A DNA stretch of 57,497 bases, the filler included, from Stramenopiles sp. TOSAG23-3 (Eukaryota), in the NCBI GenBank assembly GCA_900128585.1. It is 3 parts of 3 records of this genome, joined end to end, with 100 filler letters (N's around TTAATTAATTAA, not from the genome) between each part and the next. Parts side by side here need not be neighbours in the genome. Positions count along the whole stretch, not along the records: positions 38,431 to 57,497 come from LT642409.1; 2 more parts are not named here. One strand, written 5' to 3'. A program made the position numbers and the translations under genes. Below are positions 10,867-57,497 of the stretch, piece after piece; within the stretch, counting starts at the first letter, position 1; each line of letters opens with the position of its first letter. Under the pieces are notes generated by a model. That model was not told the origin of the DNA, did no database searches, and worked only from the letters and a program-made list of their open reading frames with translations.

Positions 10867-10885
10867 AAAAATTGGCTGTTTTATA
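10867..10885 (+). repeat. Dispersed repeat family, partial copy
   Basis: aaaaattggctgttttata between the convergent sulfatase and acetylesterase 3' ends. Confidence 0.6.
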
Positions 10886-36143: not shown

Positions 36144-36213
36144 ATCATCAGCTGCTGCTTTATATTTTGCTGGTTTGGTTCTTCTATCATCAGCTGCTGC
36201 TTTTTATTTTGCT
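36144..36213 (+). repeat. 28-bp direct repeat in the divergent YeeE-SulP intergenic region
   Basis: atcatcagctgctgctttatattttgct (36144-36171) and atcatcagctgctgctttttattttgct (36186-36213). Confidence 0.85.
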
Positions 36214-36418
36214 ATTAATTATTTGGTGGTATCTTATTTCTAGAGATAGCAGTATTGGTATTGTTTACATCTTTCGTCTCCTCTGCATAATTATAAATTT
36301 TGAACACCATGGAAGGAGGACAAGAGTACATTCAAAGTTCTGTAGAGAGTCTTTTGGTTCAAATTAATTAGCTAAACATTGAAAACAGGCGAAGTCACAC
36401 CAACTCCCTTTACTGGAA

Positions 36419-38430: not shown

Positions 38431-38574
38431 GAGAAGAGTGACTAAAATTTGGAAAAATTTGACTTGCTCGTAAATATTTTTGTACAGCGCAATCCGGCGT
38501 CGTTGCAGGGTGTTAATACATACATTTTAGCTTGATATTTTCTAGGAGAGCGAGTTACAGTGCGCGTTTTTTCT

Positions 38575-40005
38575 CTACTTTGGATTCTTTTCGACCACGG
38601 ACTTTAACATTTCAAATTGCTTTGCATTCTCCGCGTCCAGCACCCGCCCTGTTTTGGCCTTCACGTCCGACCCATAAGCAACGAACTTGTCGAACTTTTC
38701 CGCCTTCAAGTTCAAACTAAACTTGCTCAACTTATCGACAGTGTTGGCCATGTCCCACCTACTGCACAAACTCTCTATATGTCTCTCTTCTTCTTTCTTC
38801 AGCGCGATGTCCTCGTCGCCCTCGTCCACCAGCACTCCCATGAGAACTTCGTCCAAGCCCTCCTGCGCTTCTGTTTGATGGTGGCGATCTAAAAAGGAGA
38901 CTTCCGTCTCCCAAGACTCATTGCTATCGTCAAACTGTTTATTGTCCTTTGCTAGCCCGGCAAGGGTTTCTACATCGATGCAAGCATCCCCCTGAAAATA
39001 TTCGACATTCTTCCAGTCGACCGCGGCCTGCCCCGAATTCAATGCGGTGGGCTCGGAGAAAATAGCCTCGCTGTCGAAACGCTCTACTGCGCTATGGTTC
39101 AGCAAATTCTTTATCAACGAGAACATCGGGCTGTCGGAAGCCATTTTGTTCGATTCTGGTACTTTCACGGGGTTTGTGGATTTTGCTCTCTGAACGGACT
39201 CCGTGTCTTCGTTTAAGTTTTCGTTCGCGCCCATTCTAAACAGTGCCTGCCCGTGCAGTATCTCGTACAGTATGCAGCCAAAAGCCCACCAATCGTCTTT
39301 GGGGGAAAGTACTTTTTCTTCGTCTTCACTTCCAGAGCTGCCGTCGGGTGCATCATACAATACGTCTTCTAAAGCGTATATGTCGTTAGGACCCGTCGCA
39401 AGAACGTAGGAAGGGTACATACTAATTCGCACGTGCCCGCTGGGTGTGATCAACACGTTTGCCGCGCGCAGGTCTCCGTGCACCATGCCTTGCTTGTGCA
39501 AGCAGTCCAGGCCGCTCACGATCTCCGCGCCGAGCCTGCTCGCTGTTTCCAAATCAAACCCAGAACGATAGTTCAAACTCATCAAGTGCACTATGTCAAA
39601 AGCGTACGGGTTGGTTACGAGGTACCACGTTCGAAATGTTGGGGAGTGGAACGAGTGAAAAAGCCGGAGCAAGTAATGGTTTTCGAAGTCATGGGCAACT
39701 CTGGAAGCCTCTATCGTTTGCTCCAGTTTCACCGGGTTCTCCTCAAGCGCCTCGCGCCGAAAAGCCTTCAAACACACTTGCCGATCCGCTTGGCCTTCTA
39801 CAGTACAAACCCTGAGAGACTCTGCGGGTGTGTCGGTCAACTTGATCAAGTAGTTCGTCCGAAAATATCCAGTATCCACTGCAAAAGATTTGTTGTCTGT
39901 CCCCGAGGCCGCCGGCTCGTACTTGTAGCTATCGCCCACCCCAACCCGTCTCGGCGAACCCCCCGCCGTCGCTTTCTCGTTCGTCTTGCTTGCAGTACAT
40001 CCCAT
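38575..40005 (-). CDS. Protein kinase-fold protein, probable pseudokinase, likely N-acylated
   Basis: MGCTAS; VCLK; HGDLRAANVLI; DWWAFGCILYE; lacks GxGxxG and DFG (SMY at that position); APE appears as APD. Confidence 0.8.
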   Translation of the reverse strand: MGCTASKTNEKATAGGSPRRVGVGDSYKYEPAASGTDNKSFAVDTGYFRTNYLIKLTDTPAESLRVCTVEGQADRQVCLKAFRREALEENPVKLEQTIEASRVAHDFENHYLLRLFHSFHSPTFRTWYLVTNPYAFDIVHLMSLNYRSGFDLETASRLGAEIVSGLDCLHKQGMVHGDLRAANVLITPSGHVRISMYPSYVLATGPNDIYALEDVLYDAPDGSSGSEDEEKVLSPKDDWWAFGCILYEILHGQALFRMGANENLNEDTESVQRAKSTNPVKVPESNKMASDSPMFSLIKNLLNHSAVERFDSEAIFSEPTALNSGQAAVDWKNVEYFQGDACIDVETLAGLAKDNKQFDDSNESWETEVSFLDRHHQTEAQEGLDEVLMGVLVDEGDEDIALKKEEERHIESLCSRWDMANTVDKLSKFSLNLKAEKFDKFVAYGSDVKAKTGRVLDAENAKQFEMLKSVVEKNPK

Positions 40006-40995
40006 ATTGAGTTACACTGACGCCTGTGCCGTGACACTTGCTTTGACTTCAGCCGTCGCTTTACTTTGTATCTCTTTCCTAAAATTTGTAGAAACGGGCG
40101 GGTAATATTCCCATGGAAAAATCTCAGCCTATCCGGCCAAACAATCGAATGCAGACTATTAAAAATATATTAATAATAATAACGGCAACCCAACAACAAG
40201 CACAGCAGGACGGACGAAGAAAAAAGAAAGACAAAAGAAAGACAAAAAAAAGAAGATGAAATAGCATCAGTCGTCAAACAGAAAAAAACTTATTTACAAC
40301 CGATTCATCAACCAACATCATTAAAATGAGGACAATCTACATACACACACAATGAAAACCTTCCCGTTATTATTATTTAATATCCAGTTTATTTTTTTCA
40401 TCCGCCTGCCTGTGTAATGTACATTATTCGACTACGATGAGGTAGTATATAAGTACGAGGAGGAAAGGAGAAAATAAAGGAGCGCTCTTTTCTCTCTTCT
40501 CTCTCTCTTCTCTCTCTCTTTTTTTCCGTCCTGCCTGTGGACAAGTTGAACAAAAAAAATTAAGAAGAGAATATATATAATAATAATAGCATTATTATTA
40601 TTATATTACAACAAAGCAAGAAGAAGAAAGAAATCCTTTTTTTCTTCTTCTTCTTCTATTTTTTATTATTTTACGTACCGTACTACTACCAGGTACCAAA
40701 ACCAGGAACAGGTACCACGGGGGTACGGAAGAATATAAAAAATATTTTAATATAATAATAATACCAACTCCCTCTCTCGTATTTTTTTAGTGAAACAACA
40801 ATAACAAAATAAAACCCAACCAATACACTTGATGAACATCGCACACGGTGTGTATAAACTATTTTTGAATACTGAGGAGGGAAAAATCCTTCGTTTGCGC
40901 ATGCAATTTTTTTGTTTACTTTTATTGGAATCTGTTTTGTTTTGAAAGTGCTCCGATACAACAACAAAAGTATGCCGTTCTGCTCGTCAAACACT

Positions 40996-42705
40996 ATGGT
41001 GCACAAACTCACGCTCCTTTTGTTCCTTTGCTGCGCCGGACTAAGCGTTGCGCAAGGAACCACAACCAAAACGTTCGGAAATGCTTTGCAGGGCAAGCCT
41101 GCCGACGTCCTTACCAAAAGCTTGCAGGACAATGCTGCGACTAAGGTAATACCTGTAATTTGCAACGGGACGTGCGATGTCTCATCGTGCGACTTCGTTG
41201 GAGATCTGTGCTTGAACAGGATCGACTTTGCAGGTGGCAACTTCGACCGCCGCACAGGGGAGTCCTGCGCGCCAAACACTTGGGGGGTCCTTTTCGAGAT
41301 TCTCCTGTTTCTGTACGCAATGCTTGGCTTGGCAATCGTGTGCGACGACCACTTGTGTGTTGCGCTGGAACGACTGTGCGACGAATTGATGATTCGTGAG
41401 GACGTTGCCGGGGCTACTTTTATGGCCTTTGGCAGCGCTGCGCCAGAAATTATTGTCAATACTGTTGGCACGGTAAAGCAAGTCAGATCATTTCCTCCGA
41501 CACCCGCAGCCCTGGACGCAACAAACTTGGGGGTAGGGGCCATCCTGGGCAGTGGAATGATTGCCTTTTTGATCATCCCGGGCGCTTGCGCGTTGTCGAC
41601 CGGCGACGGCATTGAACTGCTGCTGAAGAGAAGGCCTTTGCTGCGGGACGTAAGTGCCTATGCCATGGCTTTGCTGTTGCTTTGCATTTTCTTTCACGAC
41701 GGTGTGATCATGCCGTACGAGGCGGGGATTCTGGTCGGCTTTTACGCGCTTTACGTATCGGTCGTGATCTTTGCCCCAAAGGTTCGTGAGGAGTACCGCC
41801 ACCGCATCCTAAAAAGACCAAAGAAAAAGCGAAAGAGTTTCGTAAATAAAAAGAGTAATGCCGGGCAAGCACCGCTCCTTTCGCTCGATGAAAGAACCCA
41901 AGATTTTGGCTCGGTGGACGACACCGCCGTTGCAATCGAGCCGAGCGACGATTCAACGAGGAAGACCGTCTCGTTCGCCGACAATGTGACTGCTAGTAGC
42001 ATTAATGGCGCCCCTGGTGCAGACGCGGTAGAAGGCAATTATGACGTTAATTTAATCGACGATGAAGACGGGAGTACGTCCGCGTTTGGTCGCCTTATCG
42101 AGTTTGTGGCGAGGCCGCTGACCTTTATGTTTGAATGGACTTGTGTCAATTGCGAAGAAGGGTCGAAATACCAGCACTACTACCCCTTGACTTTCCTTGT
42201 TTCGTTTATTTGGGTAGCAATGTTTAGTATGGTAATTAGCTCGTGCGTTGCACGGTGGACAGAGTTCACGCCGCCGTGGGCTAAAGGAAGTTTTTTTGGG
42301 CTGATTACAATTGCCATTGGCGCGGAAATCCCGGACACGATTCAGTCGGTAACCATGGCAAAGCGAGGCTATGGGAGCATGGCAGTATCGAATGCACTAG
42401 GCTCTCAAATCATCAATATTTTGCTTGGCCTTGGCCTGCCGTGGCTCATAGCGAATTTGGCAATGAAAGAGGGGCACTTGCAAGTTACGGATCACTCTGA
42501 CTTGCAATTTGCAGCGTTTTTCCAATTCGGAGCCGTTGCGCTTAACTTGTTGTTGCTGCTAGGGATGGCGCTCTATTGGGGACAAAATAAGGCGACGCTA
42601 ACGATAGGGAAAGGAAAGCTGTTCATTGCAGCTTATGCAGTAGTCGTAGGTTCTTACGTCTTGCTGATGTTGACAAAAGTTCACAAAGATCCTTGCAAAG
42701 AATAA
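40996..42705 (+). CDS. K+-dependent Na+/Ca2+ exchanger-like (NCKX/CaCA family)
   Basis: Signal peptide; LAIVCDD; alpha-1 DVAGATFMAFGSAAPE; alpha-2 IAIGAEIPD..GSMAVSNALGS. ATG 40972 is an alternative start. Confidence 0.92.
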   Translation: MVHKLTLLLFLCCAGLSVAQGTTTKTFGNALQGKPADVLTKSLQDNAATKVIPVICNGTCDVSSCDFVGDLCLNRIDFAGGNFDRRTGESCAPNTWGVLFEILLFLYAMLGLAIVCDDHLCVALERLCDELMIREDVAGATFMAFGSAAPEIIVNTVGTVKQVRSFPPTPAALDATNLGVGAILGSGMIAFLIIPGACALSTGDGIELLLKRRPLLRDVSAYAMALLLLCIFFHDGVIMPYEAGILVGFYALYVSVVIFAPKVREEYRHRILKRPKKKRKSFVNKKSNAGQAPLLSLDERTQDFGSVDDTAVAIEPSDDSTRKTVSFADNVTASSINGAPGADAVEGNYDVNLIDDEDGSTSAFGRLIEFVARPLTFMFEWTCVNCEEGSKYQHYYPLTFLVSFIWVAMFSMVISSCVARWTEFTPPWAKGSFFGLITIAIGAEIPDTIQSVTMAKRGYGSMAVSNALGSQIINILLGLGLPWLIANLAMKEGHLQVTDHSDLQFAAFFQFGAVALNLLLLLGMALYWGQNKATLTIGKGKLFIAAYAVVVGSYVLLMLTKVHKDPCKE

Positions 42706-43185
42706 ACTTTCCAAGATGTTGGTAAAAGCGTATTTGTTTTTATTTTTTTAAATAATATATATCATACCTGATTAGTAAAATCAACAACAGTGCGGTTTCT
42801 ATCTCGACGCTATACCTATGTAAAATCGTGTGAAGTGGCGTAATTTCGGATTCCTACTCTCTTTCTTCTCTGATGACCTCTGAAGGAGGGTTTTTTTGGT
42901 GTTGTTGGTTTTTTATTATACCAAGAAGAAGAAGGGGTTGTTGTTGTTTGGTACGGCGGTGTCTTGTTTCTTCTTCGTCTACTGCTATTCTATATACTAT
43001 CTTCTTTTTTTCTCTTCTTCTTCTTTCTTATTTATTTTATTACTACTACGAGGACTCATACAAATGAAAAAATCCATTGTTAAAGCCAAACCAAATTAAT
43101 CCCAATTAAAAATGGGGGGGGGCGTCCCTAGACAGACTAAGTACAAATACATTTTGCTTGTGATCGCAGTAATGAAACCGAAAAG

Positions 43186-45372
43186 ATGAGATCGTTGGCT
43201 ACAATACTTCTGTTGTTCCTTTCCGTTGGGGGCGTCTGTAATGCTGTTACCCAACAAGACCAGCACGCGGCCCGGGTCGAAGCACTGGTCGGAAACATGA
43301 CTTTGGATGAAAAAATATCTATGCTTCAAGGCAATACTGATCTTCATGGATACGTGGGCCGCACTGTTGGGGTGCCTCGCCTAGGCATACCCGATTTGAG
43401 GATGAACGACGGGCCTGAAGGGTTCCGTAATGCCGACCGGAAGTATGCGGGAACAACCACCCAGTGGCCATCAGGCTTGACGGCAGCACACTCGTTCAAC
43501 CGTTCGTTGATGCACACGTATGGAATAGCCATCGGAGAGGAATTCTACGGGAAAGGGGCGAACGTGTACTTCGGGCCTGGGCTGAACGTACAAAGGATAT
43601 CCAATGGTGGCCGATCGTTCGAATACCTTAGCGGAGAAGACCCGTTTCTTGGCTACGAGCTTGTACAACCAATTATCACAGGAGTCCAGTCGCAAAAGGT
43701 CATTGCAAATGCAAAACATTTCATTGACAATTCGCAAGAAGGTTCAATACCAGAAAATTCCACTGAAAAGTTTGGACGGGGGGATCGTCACTCTACCTCG
43801 GCTAGTATTGACAAAACTACGCAGATGGAAATGTACTTTCCGCCTTTTGAGGGCGCCGTCCGTGCAGGGGTGGCAAGCTTCATGTGTTCCAACAATCTCA
43901 TCAATGGGGAATATTCGTGCCAACACAATGCCACCCAAAATCAATTGTTGAAGGAAAGATACGGATTCAGAGGGTTTATTTGCTCGGATTACGATGGAAC
44001 GCGCTCGACAATTGACGCCGCGCTTGGCGGGTTAGATATTGCAATGCCTGGTCCTCCTGTGCGTCCAGATTATTTTGGCGGCATGCTGAAAAAGGAAGTC
44101 GGTCGTAATGTCCCCGAAAGCGTCGTGGACGATAAAGTTCGTCGAATATTGTGGGCAATGAGCTCCACCGGCGTGTTGGACGATACGAACCCAAACACTC
44201 CGGACAAAGACGTGACGTCGCCTGAACACGTTGCCCTCGCTCGCGAACTGGCCGCAGCATCGTGCATTCTGATCAAAAACGAAGACAGTACGCTGCCACT
44301 GGTTAAAAAAAGCAAAATTGCCGTCGTTGGACTCGCCGCCGATGGCAAAGGTGCAATTTATGGTGGATCCGGGTCGGGAAAAGTCACTCCAAAACAGCCC
44401 GTGTCCATCCTGAACGCCCTTCGCGCCGAGGAAAAGGGTGATATACCGTATACAAACGGAACAAATTTGTCTGCGATATCAGAAACTGTAAAAGGCTGTG
44501 ACGTTGTCATTATCGTTCTGGCACAGATATCAACCGAAGGGCGTGATCGAGCGACCATTGGCCTTCCTCAATCGGAGCTTGTCCGCGCTGTCTATGCCAC
44601 CACGCCAGCGCGCATTATTGTTGTGACGATAAGTCCTGGACCATTTTTGACGGATTTTGCTCCGTATGCCCATGCCATTGTTGATATGGGATTTCCCGGG
44701 GAACAGGAAGGGTTAGGATTGGTGGATGTGTTGATGGGACGCTACAATCCCAGCGGGAAACTGCCTCATACGCTGCCGCACAGATTGAATGATGTGGAAA
44801 TGACATCATCCCAATACCCTGGCATTCCTCCAACAAATCGTACAAAAAATGGATCCGCGCCACTTCGAACCTGTGGGTTCGTTCCGCCGATGAATCCTCC
44901 AGATAGTAAATGGGTGCCATGCTCCCCAACAACAGCCGAATACACAGAAAAGCTGCTGGTAGGCTATCGATGGTACGAACATCACAAAGTAAAACCAGCG
45001 TACGCATTTGGGCATGGCCTCAGTTACACGTCGTTTTCATACGAAAACCTACTCGTGAAGGCCACCGGTGGTGGGGGCGATGTCATCGCTTCCGTAAGCA
45101 TTACCGTGGGAAACACTGGTAAGTGCTTTGGGCGAGAGGTTGTTCAATTGTATTTGAAATACCCAGACAGCACCTACAAACAACTGCGTGGTTTTGAAGT
45201 AGCTGCCTTGGAACAAGGTGAGTCGGCATCGTTTGAGTTTGCGTTGACCCGTCGCTGGCTTTCGGCATGGAACGGGAAAAAAGATGGGTTTGAATTGGTT
45301 CATGGAAAGTTTGATGTTTATATTGGTTCATCAAGTTCTGATATTAGAGAAGTGGGAATATTATATATTTAA
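43186..45372 (+). CDS. Secreted GH3 beta-glucosidase-like glycoside hydrolase
   Basis: MTLDEKI, PRLGIP..NDGPEG, GRSFEYLSGEDP, AKHF, nucleophile FICSDY, NPSGKLP, FGHGLSYTSF, EVVQLY. Confidence 0.95.
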   Translation: MRSLATILLLFLSVGGVCNAVTQQDQHAARVEALVGNMTLDEKISMLQGNTDLHGYVGRTVGVPRLGIPDLRMNDGPEGFRNADRKYAGTTTQWPSGLTAAHSFNRSLMHTYGIAIGEEFYGKGANVYFGPGLNVQRISNGGRSFEYLSGEDPFLGYELVQPIITGVQSQKVIANAKHFIDNSQEGSIPENSTEKFGRGDRHSTSASIDKTTQMEMYFPPFEGAVRAGVASFMCSNNLINGEYSCQHNATQNQLLKERYGFRGFICSDYDGTRSTIDAALGGLDIAMPGPPVRPDYFGGMLKKEVGRNVPESVVDDKVRRILWAMSSTGVLDDTNPNTPDKDVTSPEHVALARELAAASCILIKNEDSTLPLVKKSKIAVVGLAADGKGAIYGGSGSGKVTPKQPVSILNALRAEEKGDIPYTNGTNLSAISETVKGCDVVIIVLAQISTEGRDRATIGLPQSELVRAVYATTPARIIVVTISPGPFLTDFAPYAHAIVDMGFPGEQEGLGLVDVLMGRYNPSGKLPHTLPHRLNDVEMTSSQYPGIPPTNRTKNGSAPLRTCGFVPPMNPPDSKWVPCSPTTAEYTEKLLVGYRWYEHHKVKPAYAFGHGLSYTSFSYENLLVKATGGGGDVIASVSITVGNTGKCFGREVVQLYLKYPDSTYKQLRGFEVAALEQGESASFEFALTRRWLSAWNGKKDGFELVHGKFDVYIGSSSSDIREVGILYI

Positions 45373-45486
45373 GTATATATTATTTGTATTCTAATATATA
45401 AATGTACCTATTAATAAGCATGCCATTATTATTTATTTTATAAAGAAGAGCTCCCCCCACATCATCAGCACAGCAGCTCACACACA

Positions 45487-45528
45487 ACAGCTCACAGCTC
45501 ACAGCTCACAGCTCACAGCTCACAGCTC
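45487..45528 (+). repeat. (ACAGCTC)6 tandem repeat
   Basis: Six perfect 7-mer units. Confidence 0.95.
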
Positions 45529-45887
45529 ACACGCCCCACGCCACCAAACGCACCAAACCCAAAAAACACCAAAAGCCACCAAACAAAATATAATAAAAAA
45601 AAACCGAAAAACAACGAGAAACCTCAAGTCGCAAAAAAGTAACCGAAATAATATATATTTTTTTAAATGAAATTTTTACTCAAAAAAGTAAATGGATAGG
45701 GCCAGGCAAACTACTTCAAACGAATAACTTGATATCAGAAAACGCGTGCACTGTTGACGTCCAAGTATTTTGTTTAAATATTTTTCAATCACTGCACATT
45801 TTGCAGCCGCAATCTTACCGAACTATATAGTCGAGACTGCAGATTCCGTGGACTTTGGGCAACGCGATGAATAACAACTTTAGCAAC

Positions 45888-46118
45888 ATGTGGGGATCTT
45901 CGATATTCCAAGCCTTATGCTTTATCACTGGAGTTTTATCAGTGTCTGCCGCGGGAGGGACTTACCGTCATCCGGACAAATTTGAAGTTCCTACTATTCT
46001 TTACGTAGTCGGTGGAACTTTGTGGACTCTGGTCTTTTTGGGGTGTTTTTGTTGTATCCGAGTCTTGCGCGACGAGTGGAGAGAGCGTCAAGAGAAGGTG
46101 TCAAAGAAATCTGATTAA
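45888..46118 (+). CDS. Small single-pass membrane protein
   Basis: Signal-like MWGSSIFQALCFITGVLSVSA, TM ILYVVGGTLWTLVFLGCFCCI, charged tail. ATG 45867 is an alternative start. Confidence 0.6.
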   Translation: MWGSSIFQALCFITGVLSVSAAGGTYRHPDKFEVPTILYVVGGTLWTLVFLGCFCCIRVLRDEWRERQEKVSKKSD

Positions 46119-46443
46119 GATTAAGGTACCATCAGAGAGCGCTACGTGGCACCGCAGCTTGTGAGCGTGTAGCATAATTGTTAACGAAATGGATTTTTCA
46201 TTTTTATACTTTGTAATTTCTAAAAGAACTGTGTACACACAAATGATACTAAACTAAACAGACCTAAATAATTTGTTTTTTCATACTAAACTCACAACAT
46301 TTTTGTATCATCCCGAAACACCCAAAAATTAAATTTTGGAGACCAATCTCGCCTCTCTGTTTAAACCATCTTTCGTCGCCGCTGACAGGTACCTTGCGGG
46401 CGAAATTTGTTTCTCGTGTACGCATGACCGCACCCGATCTTTC

Positions 46444-47688
46444 CTAATACACTTCTATGACTTCCTCGACCGTCCTGCTTGGCCCTATCATACCATTGTA
46501 CCCGAGGCTGTTCCCCCAACAGAATGTAACAAAATCGTACCGTAGGCCGCAACTGTGCCGTAAGCCCGTGCTTACCTCGATGAATTGCCACTTGTCGCTG
46601 TTCGGGCCGTTCATCTTCATGCTGGCTTTGGATGGAGCGTTTGTTTGGCCATCGCGATTGTCTCCCCAACAAGCCAACGAATTTCCACTGCCTTTTAACC
46701 CCACAATGTCGTGCAAATGGTCTTTGTGCAGCACGCACGCGTGCCGTTCCGCAACAGAAATTTTCAAAAATTGGCCGCTTGGAATGTGTGCTTGAACCAG
46801 CGGGGGGACCACCCCCCAGCATTTTATCTCGTGTGTGGCGGCGGCAATGCCACAGGCGTACCGCGGCCCAGCGGCAATAGTGTTAAACTTAATGCCTTTC
46901 GGTGGGGTAAGGGCGGACGATAGAGTCTTTTTGCGGTTCCCTTCGATGACTTCGGTGCCCCAGCAATCGACGGTTCCCTCGCGCAGTCCTACGTTGTTGT
47001 CATCAAAACCTCCGTCCCCCTTCACAATCCCGCATGCAAAAGTTTTACCTACAGCCAACGACGAGTACGTAGATACAAACGGCTCCAAGGTCGCGTACCC
47101 TTCGCTAGCCGGCGAAAGCTCACCAGTAGACAAGACAGCAGCGACGAACTTTGTCGGCTGCGGCGGTGCAATATCGTGTTCCCCGAAGCAGACAACAGAG
47201 CTGTTGCTATATAATAGTCCACAAATGTCTACCGGCCCCGAAACAATACTACTGAACTGCAAATCGCTCAAGTCCACGGGAACGATGGACGCTGCCCCTC
47301 GCCCCCAGCAGTGCAACAGCCTGGTGTGCCGGTTGATCCCGCAGGCGTGGTGGTACCCTATGGATATGGAACTAAACTGTGTCTCCAACTCGTTAGGCTT
47401 GTCTTGTACAAATTTTTCGCCCTTGTCCCCCCAGCACCTCAACCTTCCGCCGTTCCCGAGCAACGGCTGCTTCTCAATGGCGCACGTCGACCCCTTCGAC
47501 GTCCGCACGCTCTCGATTTTTATACTATCCTTTGGTGTCGACATCCACTTCAAGCATCGCTGACGCCTACTGTCATAATTTGTACAAAGTTCCCCTGGGT
47601 TGAAGGCGGTAGCACAGCCCAGCAAAAGAACCTTCAGAAGCAGAACCCATCGGGGCTGGCAGACTGCAGACGAACGACAATTGTCCAT
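46444..47688 (-). CDS. Secreted RCC1/BLIP-II-like (CRINKLY4-type repeat) beta-propeller protein
   Basis: Repeats SIGYHHACGI..LHCWG, AVGKTFACGI..VDCWG, AAGPRYACGI..IKCWG, STGLRHSCGL..TFCWG; hydrophobic N-terminal segment. Confidence 0.8.
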   Translation of the reverse strand: MDNCRSSAVCQPRWVLLLKVLLLGCATAFNPGELCTNYDSRRQRCLKWMSTPKDSIKIESVRTSKGSTCAIEKQPLLGNGGRLRCWGDKGEKFVQDKPNELETQFSSISIGYHHACGINRHTRLLHCWGRGAASIVPVDLSDLQFSSIVSGPVDICGLLYSNSSVVCFGEHDIAPPQPTKFVAAVLSTGELSPASEGYATLEPFVSTYSSLAVGKTFACGIVKGDGGFDDNNVGLREGTVDCWGTEVIEGNRKKTLSSALTPPKGIKFNTIAAGPRYACGIAAATHEIKCWGVVPPLVQAHIPSGQFLKISVAERHACVLHKDHLHDIVGLKGSGNSLACWGDNRDGQTNAPSKASMKMNGPNSDKWQFIEVSTGLRHSCGLRYDFVTFCWGNSLGYNGMIGPSRTVEEVIEVY

Positions 47689-48500
47689 TCGCAAGACGTG
47701 CAAGGGATGTGTACGGTCGTTCCTTCGATCGTTCGTTAATGCTCTGGGTATATAATGTTCTACTAAACGCAAACACCACCACTTTCTCTCAACAATTTTA
47801 ACACAGATGGGGCTACTACTTTATTGTTAAAAAATTGGATAATTGAATCGCTTCAAATTTAACAAACGACGCGCATGCAAATTGAACAAACAAAAAAATG
47901 CGATCATTATTTTCTGTGTTTTTTTGGGTTTTTTTTTTTTTAAATAATAATTATTTGTTGTTGTTGTGATGATATGATGATGATGCGATGATTATTTTTT
48001 TAATAATTATTAGTTAATAAAATAATAAAATTTTTAGTAGAATCAATCCGTACCTCTATCATACTTCCTATTATTCCTATATTAAATTTAATTATTTCAA
48101 TTTTTATGATGTTTTATTTTTTATTTTTCTCATCACGGTCGGAAAAATAACAGCTGTATAGCAAAGGAATAATTGAAACACGTTGAGATAAATAATAATA
48201 TTTTTTTTTTATTTAACCAACAAATCATTACGAATTAAAAGGACAGAGCAAAGAGCAAGGTGGTTGGAAAGTCGAATAAAAGGTACTTGTAGTATTTCGC
48301 ATGTTGTAATATGGATTTAACAGTAGTACCTGATTGGTTAATATATATAATAATAGGTATAATTAATATTAGTATATAAAATAATTGTTTTTAAGTATTT
48401 AATAATGATCTCATTTGCCTTTCTCCTCTCTCTCTCTCTGCTCTCTTCTCTCTGCTTTGCCTTTTCTCCTCCTCTCTCGGTGCGGCTCTCTCTGCTTTGC

Positions 48501-48605
48501 GGTTTGGTTTGGTTTGGTTTGGTTTGGGTTTGGTTTGGTTTGGTTTGGTTTGGTTTGGTTTGGTTTTGGTTTGGTTTGGTTTGGTTTGGTTTGGTTCGGT
48601 TGGTT
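48501..48605 (+). repeat. (GGTTT)n pentanucleotide microsatellite
   Basis: About 20 near-perfect units. Confidence 0.95.
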
Positions 48606-49448
48606 CTATAATTTAAAATTGGTTTCCGTAGTTACATAATAGTTAGACTATTATAAATAATGAGTCTCTTTTACAAGTGGGCTCCCATCGTATTTATAAT
48701 AAATATCCTCGTACGAGGACATCAAAGATCATAAACTAATAAATAAGTGGCTTAGCCGACGTAATGTTATATAGAGACTATCAAATACACTGAGGACTGT
48801 AGTTGATTGATGCCCAACCAACCACAAAGAAAATTATATTTAATATTTAGTCCTACTTAAATATATAGGATTTGAAGGAGTACAAAATTAACATATTCTT
48901 ATTCTTTATTCTATTTATTTAGATCTCGTAGATCTGTACTTATTAAAACTGTTGTCCACTATAATACCGTACCGGTACCATATTGATTATACAATTAATA
49001 ATTCTCCGTCCTCCTCCTGTCCTAGTCTCTTATCCTATTATCCTCTTTCTTTCTTCGTTCGGTGGTCATTTTTTTTTATTTTTATTATTATTTTTGCTTA
49101 TGATGAAGAAGAATAAGAATAATAAAATAATAAAATAATATTATTATAGTCGTCTATTATTATAAAAGAAAGGAGTTTCTTTCTTTCCGTTCCGTTCTTT
49201 CTTTTCTTTACACCCATTGTACACATTGTCATCATATGACAGAAGATTGGTTTGGATAAATGAATTGAGGATTTTGCATAGTATTTCGTACGAGCAAAGA
49301 TTAACGTGAAATTATAAACGTTGCTTCCTTCTGTACCGTTTGTTTTCTGTGGGCTTCGTTCGATCGTCTCCAAGGCACTGTTTCCGCCTTTTGACACCCT
49401 ACAGGCTGTTTGGCACGACACACGCGAGGCTGCTTTCTCTGAAATAAA

Positions 49449-52184
49449 ATGTTGCGTAAGGTAACCTCTGCCTTCCTTCTGTGCGTGTGTGCTTTCGTGG
49501 CGTTCGCCGCCGCGCAGGGGCCAGCGTCTGGTCGTCCGTCGTCGACCCCGGAGCAACAGAGGGACTCGTCAAAAATAGTCCCGGTGAAGCCTGCGCCGCT
49601 CGCTAAGGCGGACGTTGGAATGAAAATTGGTGCACCAATTGCAAAAGGGAACGTTGGGGTGACAGAATTCATTATGGAAGGGGAGGTGGAGGACATCCAG
49701 TGGGTTGGTTCGAACAAGCGGAGCGTTCTCGTGCTCACGACCGCGTCCAATTTGTACCGAAGCGGTGATGAGGGGAAAACCTGGAGAAACGTCATTGACT
49801 CCCTTCCCGCCCTCAGCTTCAAAGGGGCGCCGTCGGGGACGAACACGGTGCGGAAAGTGAAGAAGCTGGTGGTTTCCTCAGTCGACGCGAACCTCGTTTT
49901 TATCGTCGGCCAAGGCACAAGTCACTGGGTGACCAAAGACGCCGGGCGAACGTTCGTCGCCGTCAACAGCGTCGTGAAGTTCCACGACGTGGTCATGCAC
50001 CCAGCCGACAAGACCCGCATCCTCGCCAGCAGCATGGCGGCCAAGTGCCACGACGCCAAAGCGAACGGGCTCTGCTACAAAAGCGTGTACGCCACCGAAG
50101 ACTTTGGTGCCTCCTGGATCAAAGTCACGGACTACGTGGTGCAGTTCGACTGGGCGCACAACCTGGGCTCGCACCAGGCGGACAGCTTGCCCCCCACTGC
50201 AATGTTTGCGACCGTGTTCAACAAGAAAGTCGGAAATCAAAAATTTGGACACTGGGACAAGGACATTGATTTCGTCCGGAGCGACGATTTCTTCAAGTCC
50301 AAACCGACCGTCTTGGTGCCGCACGGGAACAGGTTCTTGTTTACCAAAAAATTCTTGTTCGTGGCCCAAGTGAGCCCGTTGCACGATACGGAAGTGGAAC
50401 TTCAAATGTCCAGCGACGGCGCTAGAACGTTTTTGCGTGGAACATTGCCGTACCGGATAAAGCAGCATTCCTATACAATCCTGGACACCAGCGAAGACAC
50501 CGTGTTCTTGCACGTCAACCACGAAGGCGAAGGCGCGAAGTGGGGGAACGTGTACATTTCAAACGCAGACGGTCTCAACTACACTTTGTCCCTACCCCAC
50601 AATAGTCGAGAGAGCTCGGGGAAGTGCGACTTTGAGAAAATTGAAGGCCTGGAAGGCATATACCTGGCAAACTTTATCGACATGGTCGGCAGCGATTCGG
50701 ACGACACGACGGACGACAGCACCATGTCGCAGGAAAATAGCGCAAAAGACAAACAAGTGAAGCGGGGGAAAAAGCCGCCGCCGAAGATGAGGTCCGTCAT
50801 CACGTTTGACAAGGGGGGGGTGTGGTCGTACTTGCACGCGCCCAAATTCGATGCCAACGGGAAACCGGTCAAGTGCGACAGCACGGACTGCTCGCTGCAC
50901 CTTCACGGGGTGACAGACGAATGGGGGCCATTTTACAGCACGGACACGAGCGTTGGGCTCATCATGGCGACCGGCAACATTGGCACAAGCTTGAGCGACA
51001 ACCAGGACGAAATCAACACATATTTTAGCAGGGACGCCGGTTTGTCGTGGTTTGAAGTCGCCAAGGGGTCGCACATTTATGAGTTTGGAGACCACGGTGG
51101 TCTGATCGTAATGGCAAACGACATCAAGGCCACGGACACAATTTATTACAGCTGGAACGAAGGAATGACGTGGAGCCCCTTCAAATTTTCAGACAAGAAG
51201 TTAGAAATAGACAACATAATTATTGAGCCAAGTGCGACTAGCCAAAAATTCATGGTCTATGGTAGCCGAAGCGTCAGCGGCACGAGCGACAAAAACTCGA
51301 ACTCGGTCGGGGCCGTCTATTTCCTAGACTTCGGCGAGCTGCATGCCAAGCGTTGCAAAGGGGTGGAAGCCCCCGGAACGCCCGACAGTGACTACGAGAA
51401 GTGGACCCCAAGCGACGGTCGATTGGGGGACAAATGCCTGCTCGGTCACCAGGTCACGTACATACGGCGGAAGCGGGAGGCCCAGTGTTTCAACGGTGAA
51501 AAATTAGAACGCCGAACCTTTGTGAAGCACTGCAAGTGCGCAGAGAGTGACTTCGAGTGTGACGTAGGGTACGCCCGCAGCCTGGAGGGCGGACCTTGCA
51601 ATCTGCTGTCCCCCAGTTCGAAGCCGAGTAGCGCCGTGCCGGACGTGTGCCCATCTGGCACCTCCTATAAGGTGCTGAACGGGTACCGACGTATCGCAGG
51701 AGATACTTGCTCCGGTGGCGTCGATCGGTCGCCAACAGAGCTTCCGTGCCCACGGAGCCTTAGCCACACGGGTGCGATTGTCCTTTTCATTGTCCTGTGT
51801 CTGATTATAGGGCTCTATTACAGTGGAAAATCCAAAACTTTTTCCGGTGCCATAAACTCGAGCAACCAATTTAGTCAACAGGCGATTCGCGGTGGGTCCA
51901 CCGCCTTTTCGATATGTAGAAACCTTTTGTGCATATGCTGCCGCAATGCCTCTAGTGGGATGTCCAGTGCCGGGTACAACCCTGTAGGAAAAGGCGCATT
52001 GCCGGAAACGGCCGCTGGTTACGAGGCCTACGAAGGATACCAAGACAAGGAGGATTCATCGGAAGATAGTGAATTCGAGGAGGAGGAAGAAGACGAAGAT
52101 GCGATGCCAATGGCCACTCCAGTGCATAATCGCAACACCAATTCCGGTAGCAACGATTTGTTGGATCTAGGGGACTCGCTTTAA
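49449..52184 (+). CDS. Sortilin/VPS10-domain sorting receptor
   Basis: Signal peptide; BNR/Asp-box repeats (SGDEGKTW, TEDFGASW, TFDKGGVW, SRDAGLSW, SWNEGMTW); 10CC region (CAESDFECDVGY, GYRRIAGDTCSGG); TM; acidic tail. Confidence 0.95.
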   Translation: MLRKVTSAFLLCVCAFVAFAAAQGPASGRPSSTPEQQRDSSKIVPVKPAPLAKADVGMKIGAPIAKGNVGVTEFIMEGEVEDIQWVGSNKRSVLVLTTASNLYRSGDEGKTWRNVIDSLPALSFKGAPSGTNTVRKVKKLVVSSVDANLVFIVGQGTSHWVTKDAGRTFVAVNSVVKFHDVVMHPADKTRILASSMAAKCHDAKANGLCYKSVYATEDFGASWIKVTDYVVQFDWAHNLGSHQADSLPPTAMFATVFNKKVGNQKFGHWDKDIDFVRSDDFFKSKPTVLVPHGNRFLFTKKFLFVAQVSPLHDTEVELQMSSDGARTFLRGTLPYRIKQHSYTILDTSEDTVFLHVNHEGEGAKWGNVYISNADGLNYTLSLPHNSRESSGKCDFEKIEGLEGIYLANFIDMVGSDSDDTTDDSTMSQENSAKDKQVKRGKKPPPKMRSVITFDKGGVWSYLHAPKFDANGKPVKCDSTDCSLHLHGVTDEWGPFYSTDTSVGLIMATGNIGTSLSDNQDEINTYFSRDAGLSWFEVAKGSHIYEFGDHGGLIVMANDIKATDTIYYSWNEGMTWSPFKFSDKKLEIDNIIIEPSATSQKFMVYGSRSVSGTSDKNSNSVGAVYFLDFGELHAKRCKGVEAPGTPDSDYEKWTPSDGRLGDKCLLGHQVTYIRRKREAQCFNGEKLERRTFVKHCKCAESDFECDVGYARSLEGGPCNLLSPSSKPSSAVPDVCPSGTSYKVLNGYRRIAGDTCSGGVDRSPTELPCPRSLSHTGAIVLFIVLCLIIGLYYSGKSKTFSGAINSSNQFSQQAIRGGSTAFSICRNLLCICCRNASSGMSSAGYNPVGKGALPETAAGYEAYEGYQDKEDSSEDSEFEEEEEDEDAMPMATPVHNRNTNSGSNDLLDLGDSL

Positions 52185-52349
52185 CGTGCCAGTGGGTGGT
52201 GAAAGAGCAGCGGGAAAAAAAGGTTTTTTAACGAAAAAGTATCATTATGACAATAAGAAGAAAAATTTAAAACAAGAACAAAATAAATTATCTATCATAA
52301 GCATTTAACGAGTTAATCCTAAATAATAGCCATTAGTTTGTTTTTTAAT

Positions 52350-55084
52350 TTAATTTAAATCTGGCTCTGTCACACTCATATTTTTCATCAAATGCCGGGT
52401 AACAAAACCGTTAAACTTTAAAGGCTCTTCGTTATCAAGAAAAAATGTTTCCCTGTCATCACTCTCCAACATCTCCGTCCCAAACATGCATGATGTTGTC
52501 CTCCCTAATGCATAGACAATATGGGGGGTTTGGTTCATGGATTCTTTAATAAACTCTGGAAGCCAGCTCTGGTCAAATCGGCATACCACAACCAAACCAG
52601 ATCTATCGCTGCTTGGGGGGCTGGCAGCTTCCCCTTGATTGCTTCGAGGAGTGTACACTACGTTCAAAACCTCAATGTCTACTTTTCTGTTTTGCTGCAG
52701 AGACCAAAAATGGTCAGCAGCCTTCGACGGCGAGTACGTAAGGTTCAGGTGAAGCTTTGAAACTTCACGCAGCTCCGTTTGAGAAAATCCGGTATTGGTA
52801 GCGATTTCATTGAGCAGATCTACATGATGTTTTTGTAAAGGAACATCTAGCGCCCAATACTTAGTCTCAACAACATCCACGTAGTTAAACGGTGACCATG
52901 ACTTGCCTCCGATTATGTGGTCACTAAACAAGTCGATAAGATTCTGCTCCATTCCGTCTATCGCTAATAGTGGAGTTTGAAGACAACCTGGAAATAGCTT
53001 CAATTTTTCTAACAATTTCCGTGTGTCCATTAAGGTCTCGAACATTCTTGTTCCGGTACCGTGCAATCTCTCCTTGAAACTGTCGACTGTATCGCCCGAC
53101 AAATCAAGTGGGCATAGAGCCACAAATTTTACGTCGTAAGATTCCACAATTTTCGAGGACTGCAGCAGCCGTTTTAATCGTGTAAATTCGGAACAGTTCA
53201 GTATACTTTTGCCATAAAAAACTATCTCGTTGCTCCTGGTGGTGGTCAAAAACGACTCTTCAAAGTCGTTTTCCGTGGTGTATTTGTCCGCCTCGATTAT
53301 TGCTGCGCTTACGTCCTCCTGGTATTTTAGTTTGTTGAAACTTCCGGACAGAATTGATGATGCTCCTGCCCCGTACGGGACGCACGTGACCATGCATATT
53401 GTAACGCTTGGCTTCTCATTTGCTTGGACAGAAATCGATCCGTTCAAGTATTTTTCTTCGAACTGCTCAAATTCTTTCAAGAAGAACCCCTTGGCCAAAT
53501 TCAATCGAACCGCTGGCCTTTGTTGTACATACAGAGCCCACTGCTGCATTTTGTTGCGGTGGACTATGCACTGCTTAGCAGGAATTCTCCAATTGTGGAA
53601 AAAACTTTCAATTTGCCGCAAAAACATTTTGGCCCCGTGCTCTAATAACACAGAGATTATGTTTCTATTTCCAAACGTGCGCTCAAGGTAAGGCACCAGC
53701 ATCCATGCCTTTGGTGGAACGTGCAAATCGGTAACTAAGTCCGGCCAAGGCAGCAACTTCGTTTTCAAATTCATCCGCTCGTCGTTAAATACAAAAATAT
53801 GACCGTGGTGTAAATGTGCGACTCTTTCAGGGTCAAACTTTGACGCTTGTTCGTAAAAATCTTCGACAACTTTGTCGCTGGATAAACTGAGTATTGCGGC
53901 ATTCAATTGCGATTGGCTGCTGGACATACCAGCGTAGGAATTATCTTCTTGTGCTCTATTCCAATTCAAAAAGTACACGGACACCATCTCTGGGGGTATA
54001 TTATCAAATAGATGGTAGTCGTTTTTGTCTTTTTTCTTAATTTTTTGGTTAAACTCAACGGAGTGCATCCTCGAAAGCACGGCTTTAACGTGCTCTATGG
54101 ACGTCATCTTCGCTTTATATGTCCACTTTAAAAACTTGCTCTTGTTCCTAATGTACGGCGATCTATCTGGTCCTGCAACAAGCCGTTGCAGGCGCATGTT
54201 TGTATTTAAACTTCTGTTCCTGAATATGTTTGACAGCTGAGACATTTCTTCAAAAAAATCGATTTTGACACGTACTAGCTTCGCAACCAGGCCTTTCAGC
54301 ATCTCTGTAGTTGGAAATATGAGTGGAGGGTAGTAGAATTGAGTGTTAGCGTGTGCTGGATGATTTTGGACCGTATAATGAGATACTTACGTCCTTGAAT
54401 ATCCCCATGATCGAGCGGCGGATCAACCATTTTGGAGATACACTTAGTGGACACAAAAAAGGCCCACAATTCAGCGTATGTGCTAAACCTGTAAATTTCT
54501 TGTAAAGCGGTAATAACTGCGTCTGCATTGTCTATGCCAATCCACCACGTTTCGTTCGGTACCAAATTAAACAGTGCAGCAATCCGAATAGTCTGATCAA
54601 CACTCAACAGTGTATCTTTCTGAAAACAGTGCGTCAAAACGATGTATGAAAGGATCGGGGAGGAACCGCTGTCCCCCCACTCTTCTTGATCCGTCACGCA
54701 TTCAAAGTCTAAAGTTATTTGGTAAGACTCTAGGAATAATATGAGCCTGTCTAGTTTCTCTTCGCCTACTAGAGACACCAATATTTTGTCGGCGACCCCT
54801 GTGAGCTCATCGTTACAGGAATGCTTTGAGAACGTTACCAGTTTCCCTCTAAGAGCGGTTACGATGTACGGGACTCCAGAATGCCGAAGGGATAGCAGCA
54901 CGCCACACTGAGTCCCAGATTTACCTTGTCGGTCCTCTAAAAGGCCCTCTAACTGCGACGAAAAATCGGAATCGAATGAAACAAAATCGTGAGTAGTACG
55001 CTCATCCTCTCCAACATCGGATTGAAAGGAAGCGAGGGTGCTCACGGACGTGCAATTTGAAAGTATTGAGTCAACCTGTTCCAT
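52350..55084 (-). CDS. Plant-type tRNA ligase (RNL) homologue with degenerate catalytic motifs, 2 exons (55084-54391, 54304-52350), about 882 aa
   Basis: Collinear similarity to recalled plant RNL segments: SLRHSG, FSKHS, FECVT..GDSGSSP, LVPNETW, spliced DHGDIQGQMLKGLVAKLV, YLERTFGNRN, QQWALYV; then kinase-like and 2H-like (HLNL, PHIV) regions. Confidence 0.78.
54305..54390 (-). mobile_element. Introner-like spliceosomal intron, copy 1 (86 nt, phase 1)
   Basis: GTAAGT..GCTAAC..TACAG; removal joins the two ORFs in frame; 78 of 86 positions identical to the intron at 56271-56361. Confidence 0.85.
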
Positions 55085-55559
55085 GCCGAAACCGAACCTC
55101 TGTTGCCCCTCTTACTACCTCTTTTTGCTGGTTTTGGAGCATGCTGTTTATCGCTTGGTCGATTTTTGTACCGATTGATTTTTTGAAAGCTACGATACGA
55201 TTACAGAGCCAAACCATCGTTGTGTTTCCACGCTTCTCTCAATGACTGTTGCCCAACATATTATTTTGTTGCTTTAGTCACTTTGCTTCTTCTAAGCAAT
55301 GCTATATACCTGTTGTTATTATAGAATAAAATAATGTCTGCTTTCATTTCTCCTCCTCTGTTCGTTTTTTCACAGACTTGCTGTTCCATTTCAACTCCTT
55401 CCTAGTTCCTTTCGACATTTATTTTTTCCAAACTTTCAACGAAAACCAAAAGGCCAAATAAAACGTCTTTCTTTACACAGGGCTTTAAGTATTTTACTAA
55501 AATAACTTTCTTCTTAAATATATTTTCCAATTTAATGGGCGCGGCTTTGATGTACCAAA

Positions 55560-56976
55560 TCAATTGCCATTCGTCGTGGCCTCTGGCTCAGTTTTCAGCT
55601 CCGCGTTTGGCACAGCTTCTGGCTCAGTTTTATGTTCAGCTTCAGCGTTTGCCTCCGCTTTTTCGGCGCGGGCGTTGAATGCGTTTAAGTATTCAGAATC
55701 TGGGAAAATGTACTTGGTCCCAAAATATCTCTGGGTGTTGCTCAAATAGTTCAAAAAATCTTGCAAGTAGGCCTGCAATTTTTGTGAACGCTCCGTTTTC
55801 ATGTCGCACATGGACAATAGCACGGGGAGCTTTACAAACAGGCGCAATAGGTGCTCCACGCCATACTTTAGGGATGGTCGTAACGTGCTTGAATCAGGTG
55901 CAGATTTTGATGGCGAGATTGGAGTCTCGGCGCTGCACTCGGGTGCAGCCACGCCTGCGCCCACGCCTGAGTTTACGGATGATCCGATCATCAGTTTATC
56001 GTATTGCTGCCTTTCCAGACGGTACAGCAAACAACGCCCTAAGGAGGCATTAAAAAACTCTTCGATTCCGACAGCAACTTCTTTGTACGCCTTCAGCGCA
56101 TCGCTGTTATCGCTCAATTTCTTTGCCTCTTTCCGCGCGTTCAAGTATTCTGACAAAACGGTCTTTACGCACGGTGTCCTGGGCAAAGAAACTAAGCGCT
56201 TGTCCTGCGCCACCATTTCCCAGTCTTGCACGAGGCGCTTTTTTAAACTTAAAGATATGTTGAGCTTGAACTGTACGCGTGTTGGAAATATGAGAGGAGG
56301 GTAGTAGAATTGAGTGTTAGAATGTGCTGGAGGGTTTTTGACCGAATAACGAGATACTTACGTTCTCCACGTATGACGTGTTGTCAATTTCTTTCCTTGA
56401 ATTGACCGACATGTTACCCAAGCGGTTGCCTGAGCGCGCTGATTTTACATCGTCGCTGATGACGTGCTTCTCTTTGACGACCCGTTCCCTTTTGGGCTTG
56501 GGTTGCCGTTTCGCGGTCTTTGCTTTTTTTCCCCGCGTGCGGGCGGCGCCCTGTTTTCCGGCGTCGGTCGTGACGGGTCCAAAGGCTATTTCCTGCTTGC
56601 GTTTGCGTTCCAATGCTTTGCGCTCTTTCTCTTGCCGTACCAAAGATTTTTGTATGTCCCGGTTCTCTGGGGTGTTGTCGTAAACAAACTCTTGCTCCAC
56701 CCACGCATCAAATCGTTTTGACCACCCGTTGTAGTGAACAAAATATGCGCAAAGGCTCTCCTTCCCATCTTTCTGAGGGGCAGCTTCGATTTTCAAAACT
56801 TTTGCGTGGAACAAGTTTGGGCCCCACTGGCACAAAAGCGCGTCCCCCACTTTAAATCTTACTTTGCTGGGCACTGGAAAATCCACTTCTTCTGGTGCAT
56901 GATCTTCTACCTGCTCTAAACTGGATTCCTCCGCTTCTGGTTCCAAACTCGCGCTGGGGCTACCTTCCGTGCTCAT
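55560..56976 (-). CDS. MRG15/Eaf3 family chromatin protein, 2 exons (56976-56362, 56270-55560), about 441 aa
   Basis: Chromo-barrel AKVL..YFVHYNGWSKRFDAWV; MRG domain LKKRLVQDWE, LVSLPR, LLYRLERQQY, YGVEHLLRLFVKLP. Confidence 0.93.
56271..56361 (-). mobile_element. Introner-like spliceosomal intron, copy 2 (91 nt, phase 0)
   Basis: GTAAGT..TCTAAC..TACAG; removal gives YVEN|FKLNISLSLKKRLVQDWE; near-identical to 54305-54390. Confidence 0.85.
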
Positions 56977-57351
56977 TGTCAACTACAACAAAGTAAAGTT
57001 CTTTTTAAATAATGAAGACACAACTCTACACCAGTTTTGTAAATTTTTTGCTTTATCCAGAATGTTTTGGTCCTAGTTCTTAATGCAAAAAATTGTTTCA
57101 TTCGTATCCTCTATATATATTAAAATACGAACCAACGATGAAATCGTTAAATGTCAAAAAAATGAAAAGTTAAATTGTCTTTGCTTCTTCTTCTTTTTTT
57201 TTCTTCTCTTCTTCTTCTTTTTTTTTTTCTTCTTTTCTTCTTCTCCTCTTCTCTTCTTCTTCTTGGCGCTTGGCGGCTTGAGAAGAGGAGGATGGATGGG
57301 GTTGGTCGTCCGGTATTGTATTTTTATTGTATTCTTCTATTATTATTTTAG

Positions 57352-57497
57352 AAAAGAGAAGAAGAAGAAGAAGAAGAAGAAGAAGAAGAAGAAGAAGAAG
57401 AAGAAAGAAAGAAAGAAGAAGAAGAAGAAGAAAGAAGAAAGAAGAAGAACAAGAAGAACAAGAAGAAGAAGAAAGAAAGAAAGAAGAAAGAAGAAAG
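57352..57497 (+). repeat. (GAA)n/(GAAA)n purine tract at the window end
   Basis: Direct inspection; a complementary CTT-rich tract lies at about 57184-57263. Confidence 0.95.

Follow-up and report, generated by a model that had tools for sequence, protein, structure and literature searches.

Gene model and family assignment

The window analysed here is a 57,497-nucleotide (nt) stretch of DNA from Stramenopiles sp. TOSAG23-3 (GenBank assembly GCA_900128585.1), in which three parts of three records are joined end to end with 100 filler letters between each part and the next; positions are counted along the whole stretch, and positions 38,431 to 57,497 come from record LT642409.1. On the minus strand of this last part lies a two-exon gene that a preliminary description, made from the sequence alone, had read as a homologue of plant-type tRNA ligases, with an intact frame of about 882 codons after splicing and with all three catalytic centres apparently degenerate. 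The frame is as described: the two exons, joined by script, give a spliced coding sequence (CDS) of 2649 nt that runs from an ATG at 55084 to a TAA at 52352–52350 and holds 882 codons and a stop, with a single 86-nt GT..AG intron. Retention of this intron would lead the exon-1 frame into a stop at 54296. We infer splicing of the 54305–54390 intron from the sequence, and the splice model is supported because both exons are collinear with the same relative, the Triparma laevis protein P0005, across the splice site. Exon 1 residues 29–231 align with P0005 residues 17–232 (36% identity, BLASTP E 5e-34), and the exon 2 match begins at P0005 residue 234 and continues to the C terminus of P0005 (BLASTP E 1e-25 and 4e-20). 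The motif strings quoted in the preliminary description (LRHSGV, KGLVAK, PPKAWMLVPYLERTF, CVPYGAGASS, HLNL and HIVY) could each be located in the protein; they had been set against the plant motif strings KHSGS and EGLVAR.

Public gene calls at the locus are all shortened. None has exon 1, so that public protein sets lack the ligase-like domain. In the 650-residue public open reading frame (ORF) calls, translation begins with the first Met that exon 2 encodes. A EukProt model of 469 residues has a later start and excises residues ~673–733 as an intron, although these residues align with the relatives; the EukProt proteome of this organism lists a model of the gene as g7327.t1.

The link to a protein family was made through relatives of the protein. 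A phmmer search of 1.84 billion cluster representatives returned 16 matches at E <= 0.001, the best foreign match being P0005 (a hypothetical protein, GMI06933.1, of 997 residues; E 2.6e-28), and the same scan reached P0007 at E 1.4e-8. P0005 contains PF09511 (RNA_lig_T4_1; 32.1 bits against a cut-off of 28.3, residues 31–127), P0007 contains PF08302 (tRNA_lig_CPD; 28.7 bits against a cut-off of 23), and in P0006 tRNA_lig_kinase scored slightly under its cut-off. Across the 15 foreign relatives, two stood above a tRNA-ligase family cut-off and 11 had no Pfam family at E <= 0.01. A profile of the family reached the Candida albicans Trl1 kinase chains in the PDB at E 1.2e-4, and at 7.1e-6 with a larger alignment. 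In a protein-language-model Atlas, the clusters nearest to exon 2 were labelled 'tRNA ligase' and carried all three Pfam domains (0.94, 191 shared features); those nearest to exon 1 were RNA_lig_T4_1 clusters (0.85–0.86, 133–142 shared features), which we regard as a lead at most, and the Atlas matches were a mix of fungal, viral and streptophyte clusters. Word-indexed searches of 5.8 billion proteins with exon 2 found copies of the gene itself and nothing else, and the same kind of search with the family alignment again found only its own copies and fragments. One apparent relative, the 74%-identical P0029, was rejected as the same sequence fused to unrelated residues. Taken together, these sequence comparisons show that the gene product is a strongly diverged homologue of the trifunctional tRNA ligases Trl1/RNL, which combine ligase, kinase and 2H cyclic phosphodiesterase (CPD) domains; the homology proposed at the outset is borne out by the relatives that pass PF09511 or PF08302 and by the profile match to the Trl1 kinase.

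We modelled exon 2 with AlphaFold2 (AF2). With a 24-sequence alignment the predicted local distance difference test score (pLDDT) was 67.8, with most of model residues 300–470 above 85; the score was 34.5 without the alignment. Foldseek placed 6u05, a fungal RNA kinase/Trl1 KIN–CPD structure, first among its PDB matches (E 3.7e-8), and CNPase-type 2H domains (2ilx, 2i3e) stood lower in the list. In a VIA-align comparison with 48,161 chains, the model matched the fungal Trl1 kinase 6u03_A (Z 14.4, root mean square deviation 3.1, 165 residues) and the 'Trl1-LIG-KIN' chain 9r3w_A (Z 13.3, model residues 202–467), and its C-terminal domain (model residues 475–639) matched mouse CNPase 2xmi_A (Z 8.4). 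Because generic P-loop kinases follow close behind at Z 10–13, the fold alone identifies a polynucleotide or nucleotide kinase fold followed by a 2H fold, and the family assignment comes from sequence. The ligase–kinase–CPD architecture is kept, as the preliminary description held, according to both the collinear alignment and the exon 2 fold matches.

The proteins closest to it come from algae and protists (Triparma, a diatom metagenome-assembled genome (MAG) and the green alga Cymbomonas, whose protein falls in a neighbouring clade), as judged in a comparison made without a land-plant sequence. All 13/13 relatives have a KHSG-type motif I, as against KxNG in fungi, and motifs IV and V lie 196 residues apart, as against 23 in CthTrl1; in these two features the layout departs from the fungal type. 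A paper of 2016 described the family as 'very restricted' in its distribution, with plants, yeast and trypanosomatids as its hosts (PMC4931112). The sequences collected here show a wider distribution that takes in Triparma, the diatom MAG, Cymbomonas and many environmental sequences. The suggestion that a plant-type RNL in a protist is of interest in itself did not survive this survey: with relatives in these algae and in many metagenomic sequences, its presence is unsurprising.

Active-site residues of the three domains

The spliced protein was aligned with 17 relatives using MAFFT, and the counts in Table 1 give, out of the homologues that have any residue in a column, those that carry the usual one. 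Seventy-five columns were conserved, meaning at least 90% identical in 11 or more homologues. Of these, 48 are kept in this protein and 27 have changed, whereas full-length or near-full-length relatives keep 91–100%. The figure is 79% for P0019, which sits on a long branch, and 61% for P0007, a fragment with a non-homologous N terminus that was forced into the alignment. Each of the three centres has lost two or more residues that do not vary among the relatives. Six of eight catalytic motifs are altered, and two are retained: the motif Ia Lys with the motif III Glu, and the general-base Asp of the kinase.

In the ligase-like domain, the nucleophile position of motif I reads Arg67. Its codon is CGG (54886–54884), which is two base changes away from Lys, in line with the earlier view that this is not a single-base error. 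The motif IV Glu and both Lys of motif V are replaced as well, and further changes in the region include N88H and H139S. Mutation of the corresponding nucleophile in AtRNL (K152A) stops ligation (PMC3964908). In CthTrl1, K148, E218, E300 and K323/K325 are active-site residues that match essential yeast residues, with K323/K325 touching the ATP alpha phosphate and Glu300 being essential (PMC6379707). The motif Ia Lys is retained here as Lys87; in CthTrl1 this residue makes contact with the 3' exon and with the 5' phosphate of that exon (PMC6379707, PMC12440814). As a lead, R440 and R445 of the RTFxxRN block might correspond to R334/R337 of the CthTrl1 2'-phosphate site, with which the VIA-align range (model residue 202 to chain residue 327) is compatible; counting against this equivalence, the arginines of the fungal site are described as absent in plant Trl1 (PMC12440814).

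The kinase-like domain has lost the P-loop Lys, the Asp of the DKN/DRN motif and the second Arg of the lid. In AtRNL, kinase activity is lost in K700A-S701A and in D726A (PMC3964908); in CalTrl1, K425A and D445N efface it, D474 contacts Mg-bound waters, and the lid Arg equivalent to SceTrl1 R511 is essential (PMC5728400). The general-base Asp is retained as Asp571, 25 residues past the position of the P-loop Lys (the equivalent of AtRNL D726 and CalTrl1 D445). An initial assignment of G596 to AtRNL D726 was rejected, as spacing and the CalTrl1 alignment place D726/D445 at D571 and G596 at D474.

In the C-terminal domain both HxT motifs keep the His and lose the Thr, and the CPD centre is, as read from the alignment, only half degenerate. 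AtRNL T1001A is CPDase-defective (PMC3964908). Other retained elements are H68-S69-G70, K87, E128, the invariant YxxRTFxxRN block (Y437, R440, F442, R445), G543/G545/S547, D571, R644, H750 and H826. The observation that all three centres are degenerate holds, with two corrections: ligase and kinase residues and both HxT threonines are replaced, but both 2H histidines and kinase Asp571 are kept.

Table 1. Features of the tRNA ligase homologue and its neighbours, in positions of the window
Feature	Positions	Strand	Description
Whole gene	52350..55084	minus	882 codons + TAA, two exons
Exon 1	54391..55084	minus	Codons 1–231 and first base of codon 232; N-terminal part, ligase-like (nucleotidyltransferase) domain
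Intron	54305..54390	minus	86 nt, GTAAGT...CAG, spliceosomal-type; removal restores the frame
Exon 2	52350..54304	minus	Coding 54304–52353; remaining ligase-like domain, kinase-like domain, 2H/CPD-like domain, stop
Arg67, motif I nucleophile position	54884..54886	minus	CGG; Lys in 13/13 homologues
Glu128, motif III	54701..54703	minus	Retained; DFE here, SFE in relatives
Lys235, motif IV Glu position	54294..54296	minus	LKG here, LEG in relatives; Glu in 15/16
Ala431-Trp-Met433, motif V Lys-x-Lys position	53700..53708	minus	Lys in 16/16 at both columns
Kinase-like P-loop domain	52902..53420	minus	Residues 527–699; AF2 pLDDT mostly > 85; 6u05, 6u03_A
Degenerate P-loop G-A-G-A-S-S	53355..53372	minus	Residues 543–548; Ala546 for P-loop Lys, Lys in 15/15
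Gly596, DKN/DRN Asp position	53211..53213	minus	D596G; equivalent of CalTrl1 Asp474
Lid R644-L-H-G-T648 for RxxxR	53055..53069	minus	Second Arg (CalTrl1 R532 / SceTrl1 R511) lost; Arg in 16/16
2H phosphoesterase (CPD)-like domain	52386..52880	minus	Residues 707–871; 2xmi_A, 2ilx, 2i3e; relative P0007 with tRNA_lig_CPD
First 2H motif H750-L-N752	52743..52751	minus	HxT in 13/13 relatives; Thr752 -> Asn
Second 2H motif H826-I-V828	52515..52523	minus	HxT in 13/13 relatives; Thr828 -> Val
Sortilin/Vps10 gene	49443–52184	plus	Neighbour, unrelated
MRG/MSL3-chromodomain gene	55560–56982	minus	Neighbour, unrelated

With Arg at the nucleophile position, and without the Glu of motif IV or either Lys of motif V, formation of lysyl-AMP would be lost. 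The kinase, having lost its P-loop Lys, its lid Arg and the Asp that contacts the Mg-bound waters, would be unable to transfer phosphate from nucleoside triphosphates (NTPs), and the CPD, with both His and neither Thr, would be at best a crippled cyclic phosphodiesterase. Since all three centres appear crippled in this way, we consider it likely that the protein is a maintained pseudoenzyme of the Trl1/RNL family, kept for a non-catalytic role.

An alternative is that the protein is still an enzyme, either a healing-only or altered RNA-end modifier that works through the retained 2H histidines, as a weak or re-specialised phosphodiesterase or a nucleotide binder, or one with non-canonical chemistry elsewhere. 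H750, H826, D571, S547, R644, K87 and E128 are all retained, and the kinase-like and CPD-like domains model as ordered folds, as this alternative would have it. Yet the loss of one HxT Thr in AtRNL T1001A is by itself enough for a CPDase defect, whereas both are replaced here (PMC3964908); the P-loop Lys, now Ala, is essential in AtRNL (PMC3964908) and CalTrl1 (PMC5728400); and the ligase nucleophile is Arg, with three further active-site residues gone. On balance we think continued catalysis unlikely.

Constraint, RNA-library contigs and possible age of the degenerate state

Chance does not account for the open frame: when the CDS was shuffled 2000 times, no stretch without a stop was longer than 223 codons, as against the 882 observed. 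We also simulated unconstrained substitution on the CDS (1000 replicates, indels ignored). At 10% amino-acid divergence 3/1000 replicates were still free of stops; at 36%, the share of conserved columns that have changed, 0/1000 were, with a mean of 18.5 stops. These simulations argue, if indirectly, that the frame has been kept against neutral decay. Although the protein has evolved rapidly, it retains its frame and two thirds of the columns that are conserved in the family.

In a maximum-likelihood tree of 16 sequences, from which the fragments P0008, P0012, P0013, P0015, P0016, P0017 and P0037 and the near-duplicate P0028 were omitted, the protein is sister to three Triparma proteins (support 99/96) on an end branch of 2.42, as against ~0.8 for Triparma. 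P0006, P0009–P0012 and P0014–P0019 form a clade of ~900–1020-residue RNL-like proteins from Cymbomonas and environmental sequences, with intact KHSG, EG, KLK, PPGGGKS, DKN and HxT motifs. This clade is almost invisible to Pfam.

A 273-residue metagenomic fragment from another organism, P0013 (also P0038), found on ~1 kb contigs from two sources, matches the C-terminal domain of the protein (30% identity, E 3e-14). The two share strings that are not in Triparma (WSLQQN and RFD.S.LP.F), and the HxT positions of P0013 read H-I-K and R-V-T in a frame that is open there. In a C-terminal tree of 15 sequences (omitting P0035, P0036, P0037, P0016 and short fragments, in which the region is missing), P0013 is the nearest neighbour of this protein (84/83), and its sequence makes it a possible orthologue of the dead form. 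A real grouping would mean that degeneration predates this species. Orthologue DNA was not found in two metagenome-contig scans, one made with the single protein and one with the subfamily alignment.

Contigs assembled from RNA libraries matched the exons at 100% identity, with three in library X15, four in X16 and two in the oligo-dT library X17; the X17 contigs lie at the 3' end (52328–52603), and the three libraries come from two studies. We give no weight to the stretches of the gene that have no such contig.

These data bear on a second alternative, in which the gene would be a young pseudogene, a decaying duplicate or relic of a tRNA ligase that has so far escaped a stop codon. The end branch of 2.42 and the 27/75 changed columns are what such decay would produce, and the RNA contigs leave expression unproven. 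However, 882 codons are open where the neutral simulation left 3/1000 replicates open at 10% divergence and 0/1000 at 36%; 48/75 conserved columns, mostly structural, and canonical splice sites are kept; the RNA-library contigs, from two studies and including the oligo-dT library at the 3' end, lie in exons only; and a second lineage, P0013, has an open but degenerate CPD domain. A gene in decay is for these reasons quite improbable.

The DNA sequence itself is real and stable. At least half of the stretch's words were found in 14 public DNA runs, in which the sequence is the same or almost the same, and all or part of it in 20 rows from 15 studies. Contigs from four runs agree with the window sequence apart from two differences over 2.9 kb in one of them, run X7 (synonymous at 53943, Ser-to-Pro at 53939), and protein variants in the public cluster differ from the window at 1–3 residues over 650. 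Although the public models disagree with one another (650-residue ORFs without exon 1, a 469-residue EukProt model with an extra intron), assembly errors, sequencing errors or a wrong gene model are a highly implausible source of the motif changes, given the agreement among the 14 public runs, the four sets of contigs with two differences in one, the two base changes from Lys to Arg, the spread of changes across at least nine separate codons and the collinearity of the exons with P0005.

Possible roles, known systems and the surrounding window

Several observations weigh against the reading of the gene as a maintained pseudoenzyme of this family. As regards the family, a Pfam scan of both exon products gave no family at E <= 1, which makes the family link transitive; phmmer with the protein against the PDB gave chance-level matches only; and the family profiles reached the kinase but not the Trl1-LIG chains in the PDB. 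The AF2 model and the fold searches cover exon 2, and the N-terminal ligase fold lies outside the model. As regards maintenance, the near relatives are variants more than 99% identical and give no power for a ratio of nonsynonymous to synonymous substitution rates (dN/dS), run X7 with its one difference of each kind included; no contig covering or bridging the 54305–54390 intron was found among the RNA libraries; and the RNA evidence is weak but positive, with carry-over of DNA into the libraries possible. Support for the P0013 grouping is moderate, and attraction between its long branches could have produced it. As regards catalysis, 'degenerate' is an accurate term, whereas 'dead' is judged from the residues alone and most strongly for the ligase and kinase; with the CPD His pair, the kinase Asp, the motif Ia Lys and the motif III Glu kept, residual or altered activity is conceivable.

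If the protein is indeed a pseudoenzyme, the role we prefer would be to bind RNA, RNA ends or a partner in tRNA splicing or RNA repair through the preserved scaffold. We favour binding because the motif Ia Lys, the 2H histidines and the P-loop backbone are retained, and offer this role tentatively, with low confidence. A more specific reading, which we hold to be somewhat doubtful, is that the Trl1/RNL family has here its first natural 'triple-dead' member, which would be conserved in at least two marine protist lineages (those of this gene and of P0013) and would act as a non-catalytic reader or sequestering factor for the ends of broken RNA (2',3'-cyclic phosphate or 5'-OH) or as a regulatory subunit in tRNA splicing or RNA repair, with joining left to an intact paralogue or RtcB.

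The closest relatives are P0005 and its orthologues from T. verrucosa (P0031) and T. strigata (P0032), which have the same domain order and share with this protein a subfamily insertion after motif I (VTGLxGKLATFSK) and a TFGNRN block. The Triparma proteins keep KHSGS, LEG, KWK, GTGKST, DKN, RxxxR, HVT and H[VI]T, whereas this protein has lost the key residues of these motifs; they are also ~115 residues longer, with a ligase–kinase linker that is absent here, and are known from sequence alone. AtRNL has the same LIG–KIN–CPD layout, and its K152, K700/S701 and T1001 (PMC3964908) correspond to R67, A546 and N752. Unlike this protein AtRNL is active, and the equivalent of its D726, D571, is kept here; these positions were matched without a direct AtRNL alignment. 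The fungal Trl1 proteins of S. cerevisiae, C. thermophilum and C. albicans have the same three domains and are active and GTP-specific. In CthTrl1, motif V (K323) lies 23 residues past motif IV (E300) and motif I is KxNG (PMC6379707), as against 196 residues and KHSG in this family.

Loss of catalysis with retention of a fold has a parallel in yeast Clp1, a non-catalytic subunit in which an RNA 5'-kinase fold persists although a conserved Asp and two Arg have been lost (bioRxiv 10.64898/2026.08.16.745097). Clp1 differs in belonging to an unrelated family (Clp1/Grc3), in having a single domain and in that its non-catalytic role is known. RNA-repair activities have also been uncoupled in evolution in the 'sealing-only' ligase of Mucorales (PMC10946435) and the separate healing and sealing enzymes of Branchiostoma (PMC10598085). 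By contrast with this protein, in which three domains are kept and residues are lost, whole domains were there lost or split and active sites kept. No description of a tRNA ligase homologue that is dead by nature turned up in a full-text literature search, with subscription journals mostly outside it.

Trl1/RNL enzymes are essential three-in-one RNA repair machines and targets for antifungal and antiparasitic drugs. Their known evolutionary variation consists in the loss or splitting of whole domains. If our reading is right, this protein would be a natural separation-of-function form, with three folds kept and key residues of all active sites lost, and would point to a non-catalytic scaffold activity (binding of RNA ends or partners) that is possibly masked in the active enzymes too. 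It is a candidate non-catalytic tRNA-ligase scaffold that standard assays can test, and with it comes a branch of ~1000-residue RNL-like proteins of algae and protists that Pfam nearly misses.

The window is a compact eukaryotic stretch, and the genes flanking the ligase homologue are unrelated to it (Table 1). The intron of the ligase homologue at 54305–54390 (minus) is 90% identical over 81 nt to an intron of the neighbouring MRG/chromodomain gene at 56281–56361 (minus; blastn E 4e-26), and both begin with GTAAGTATCTC. These two copies, the only ones in the window, resemble a repeated, 'introner'-type intron element. ARAGORN found no tRNA genes in the window, and no plastid-related genes were seen among the 23 window ORFs scanned. 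Genes for polysaccharide breakdown and sulphur handling lie at 7077–12622, 34337–38299 and 43141–45372; they comprise a GH5/GH42-like hydrolase, a sulfatase, a pectinacetylesterase, a sulphur-transport protein, a SulP sulfate permease with a STAS domain and a GH3 glycosidase, and may be of interest for the lifestyle of the organism. The ORF at 2587–6180 (1197 residues) has no Pfam family. G+C content is uneven along the window, at 55–56% in 1–2000 and 4001–6000 and 33.5% in 22001–24000.

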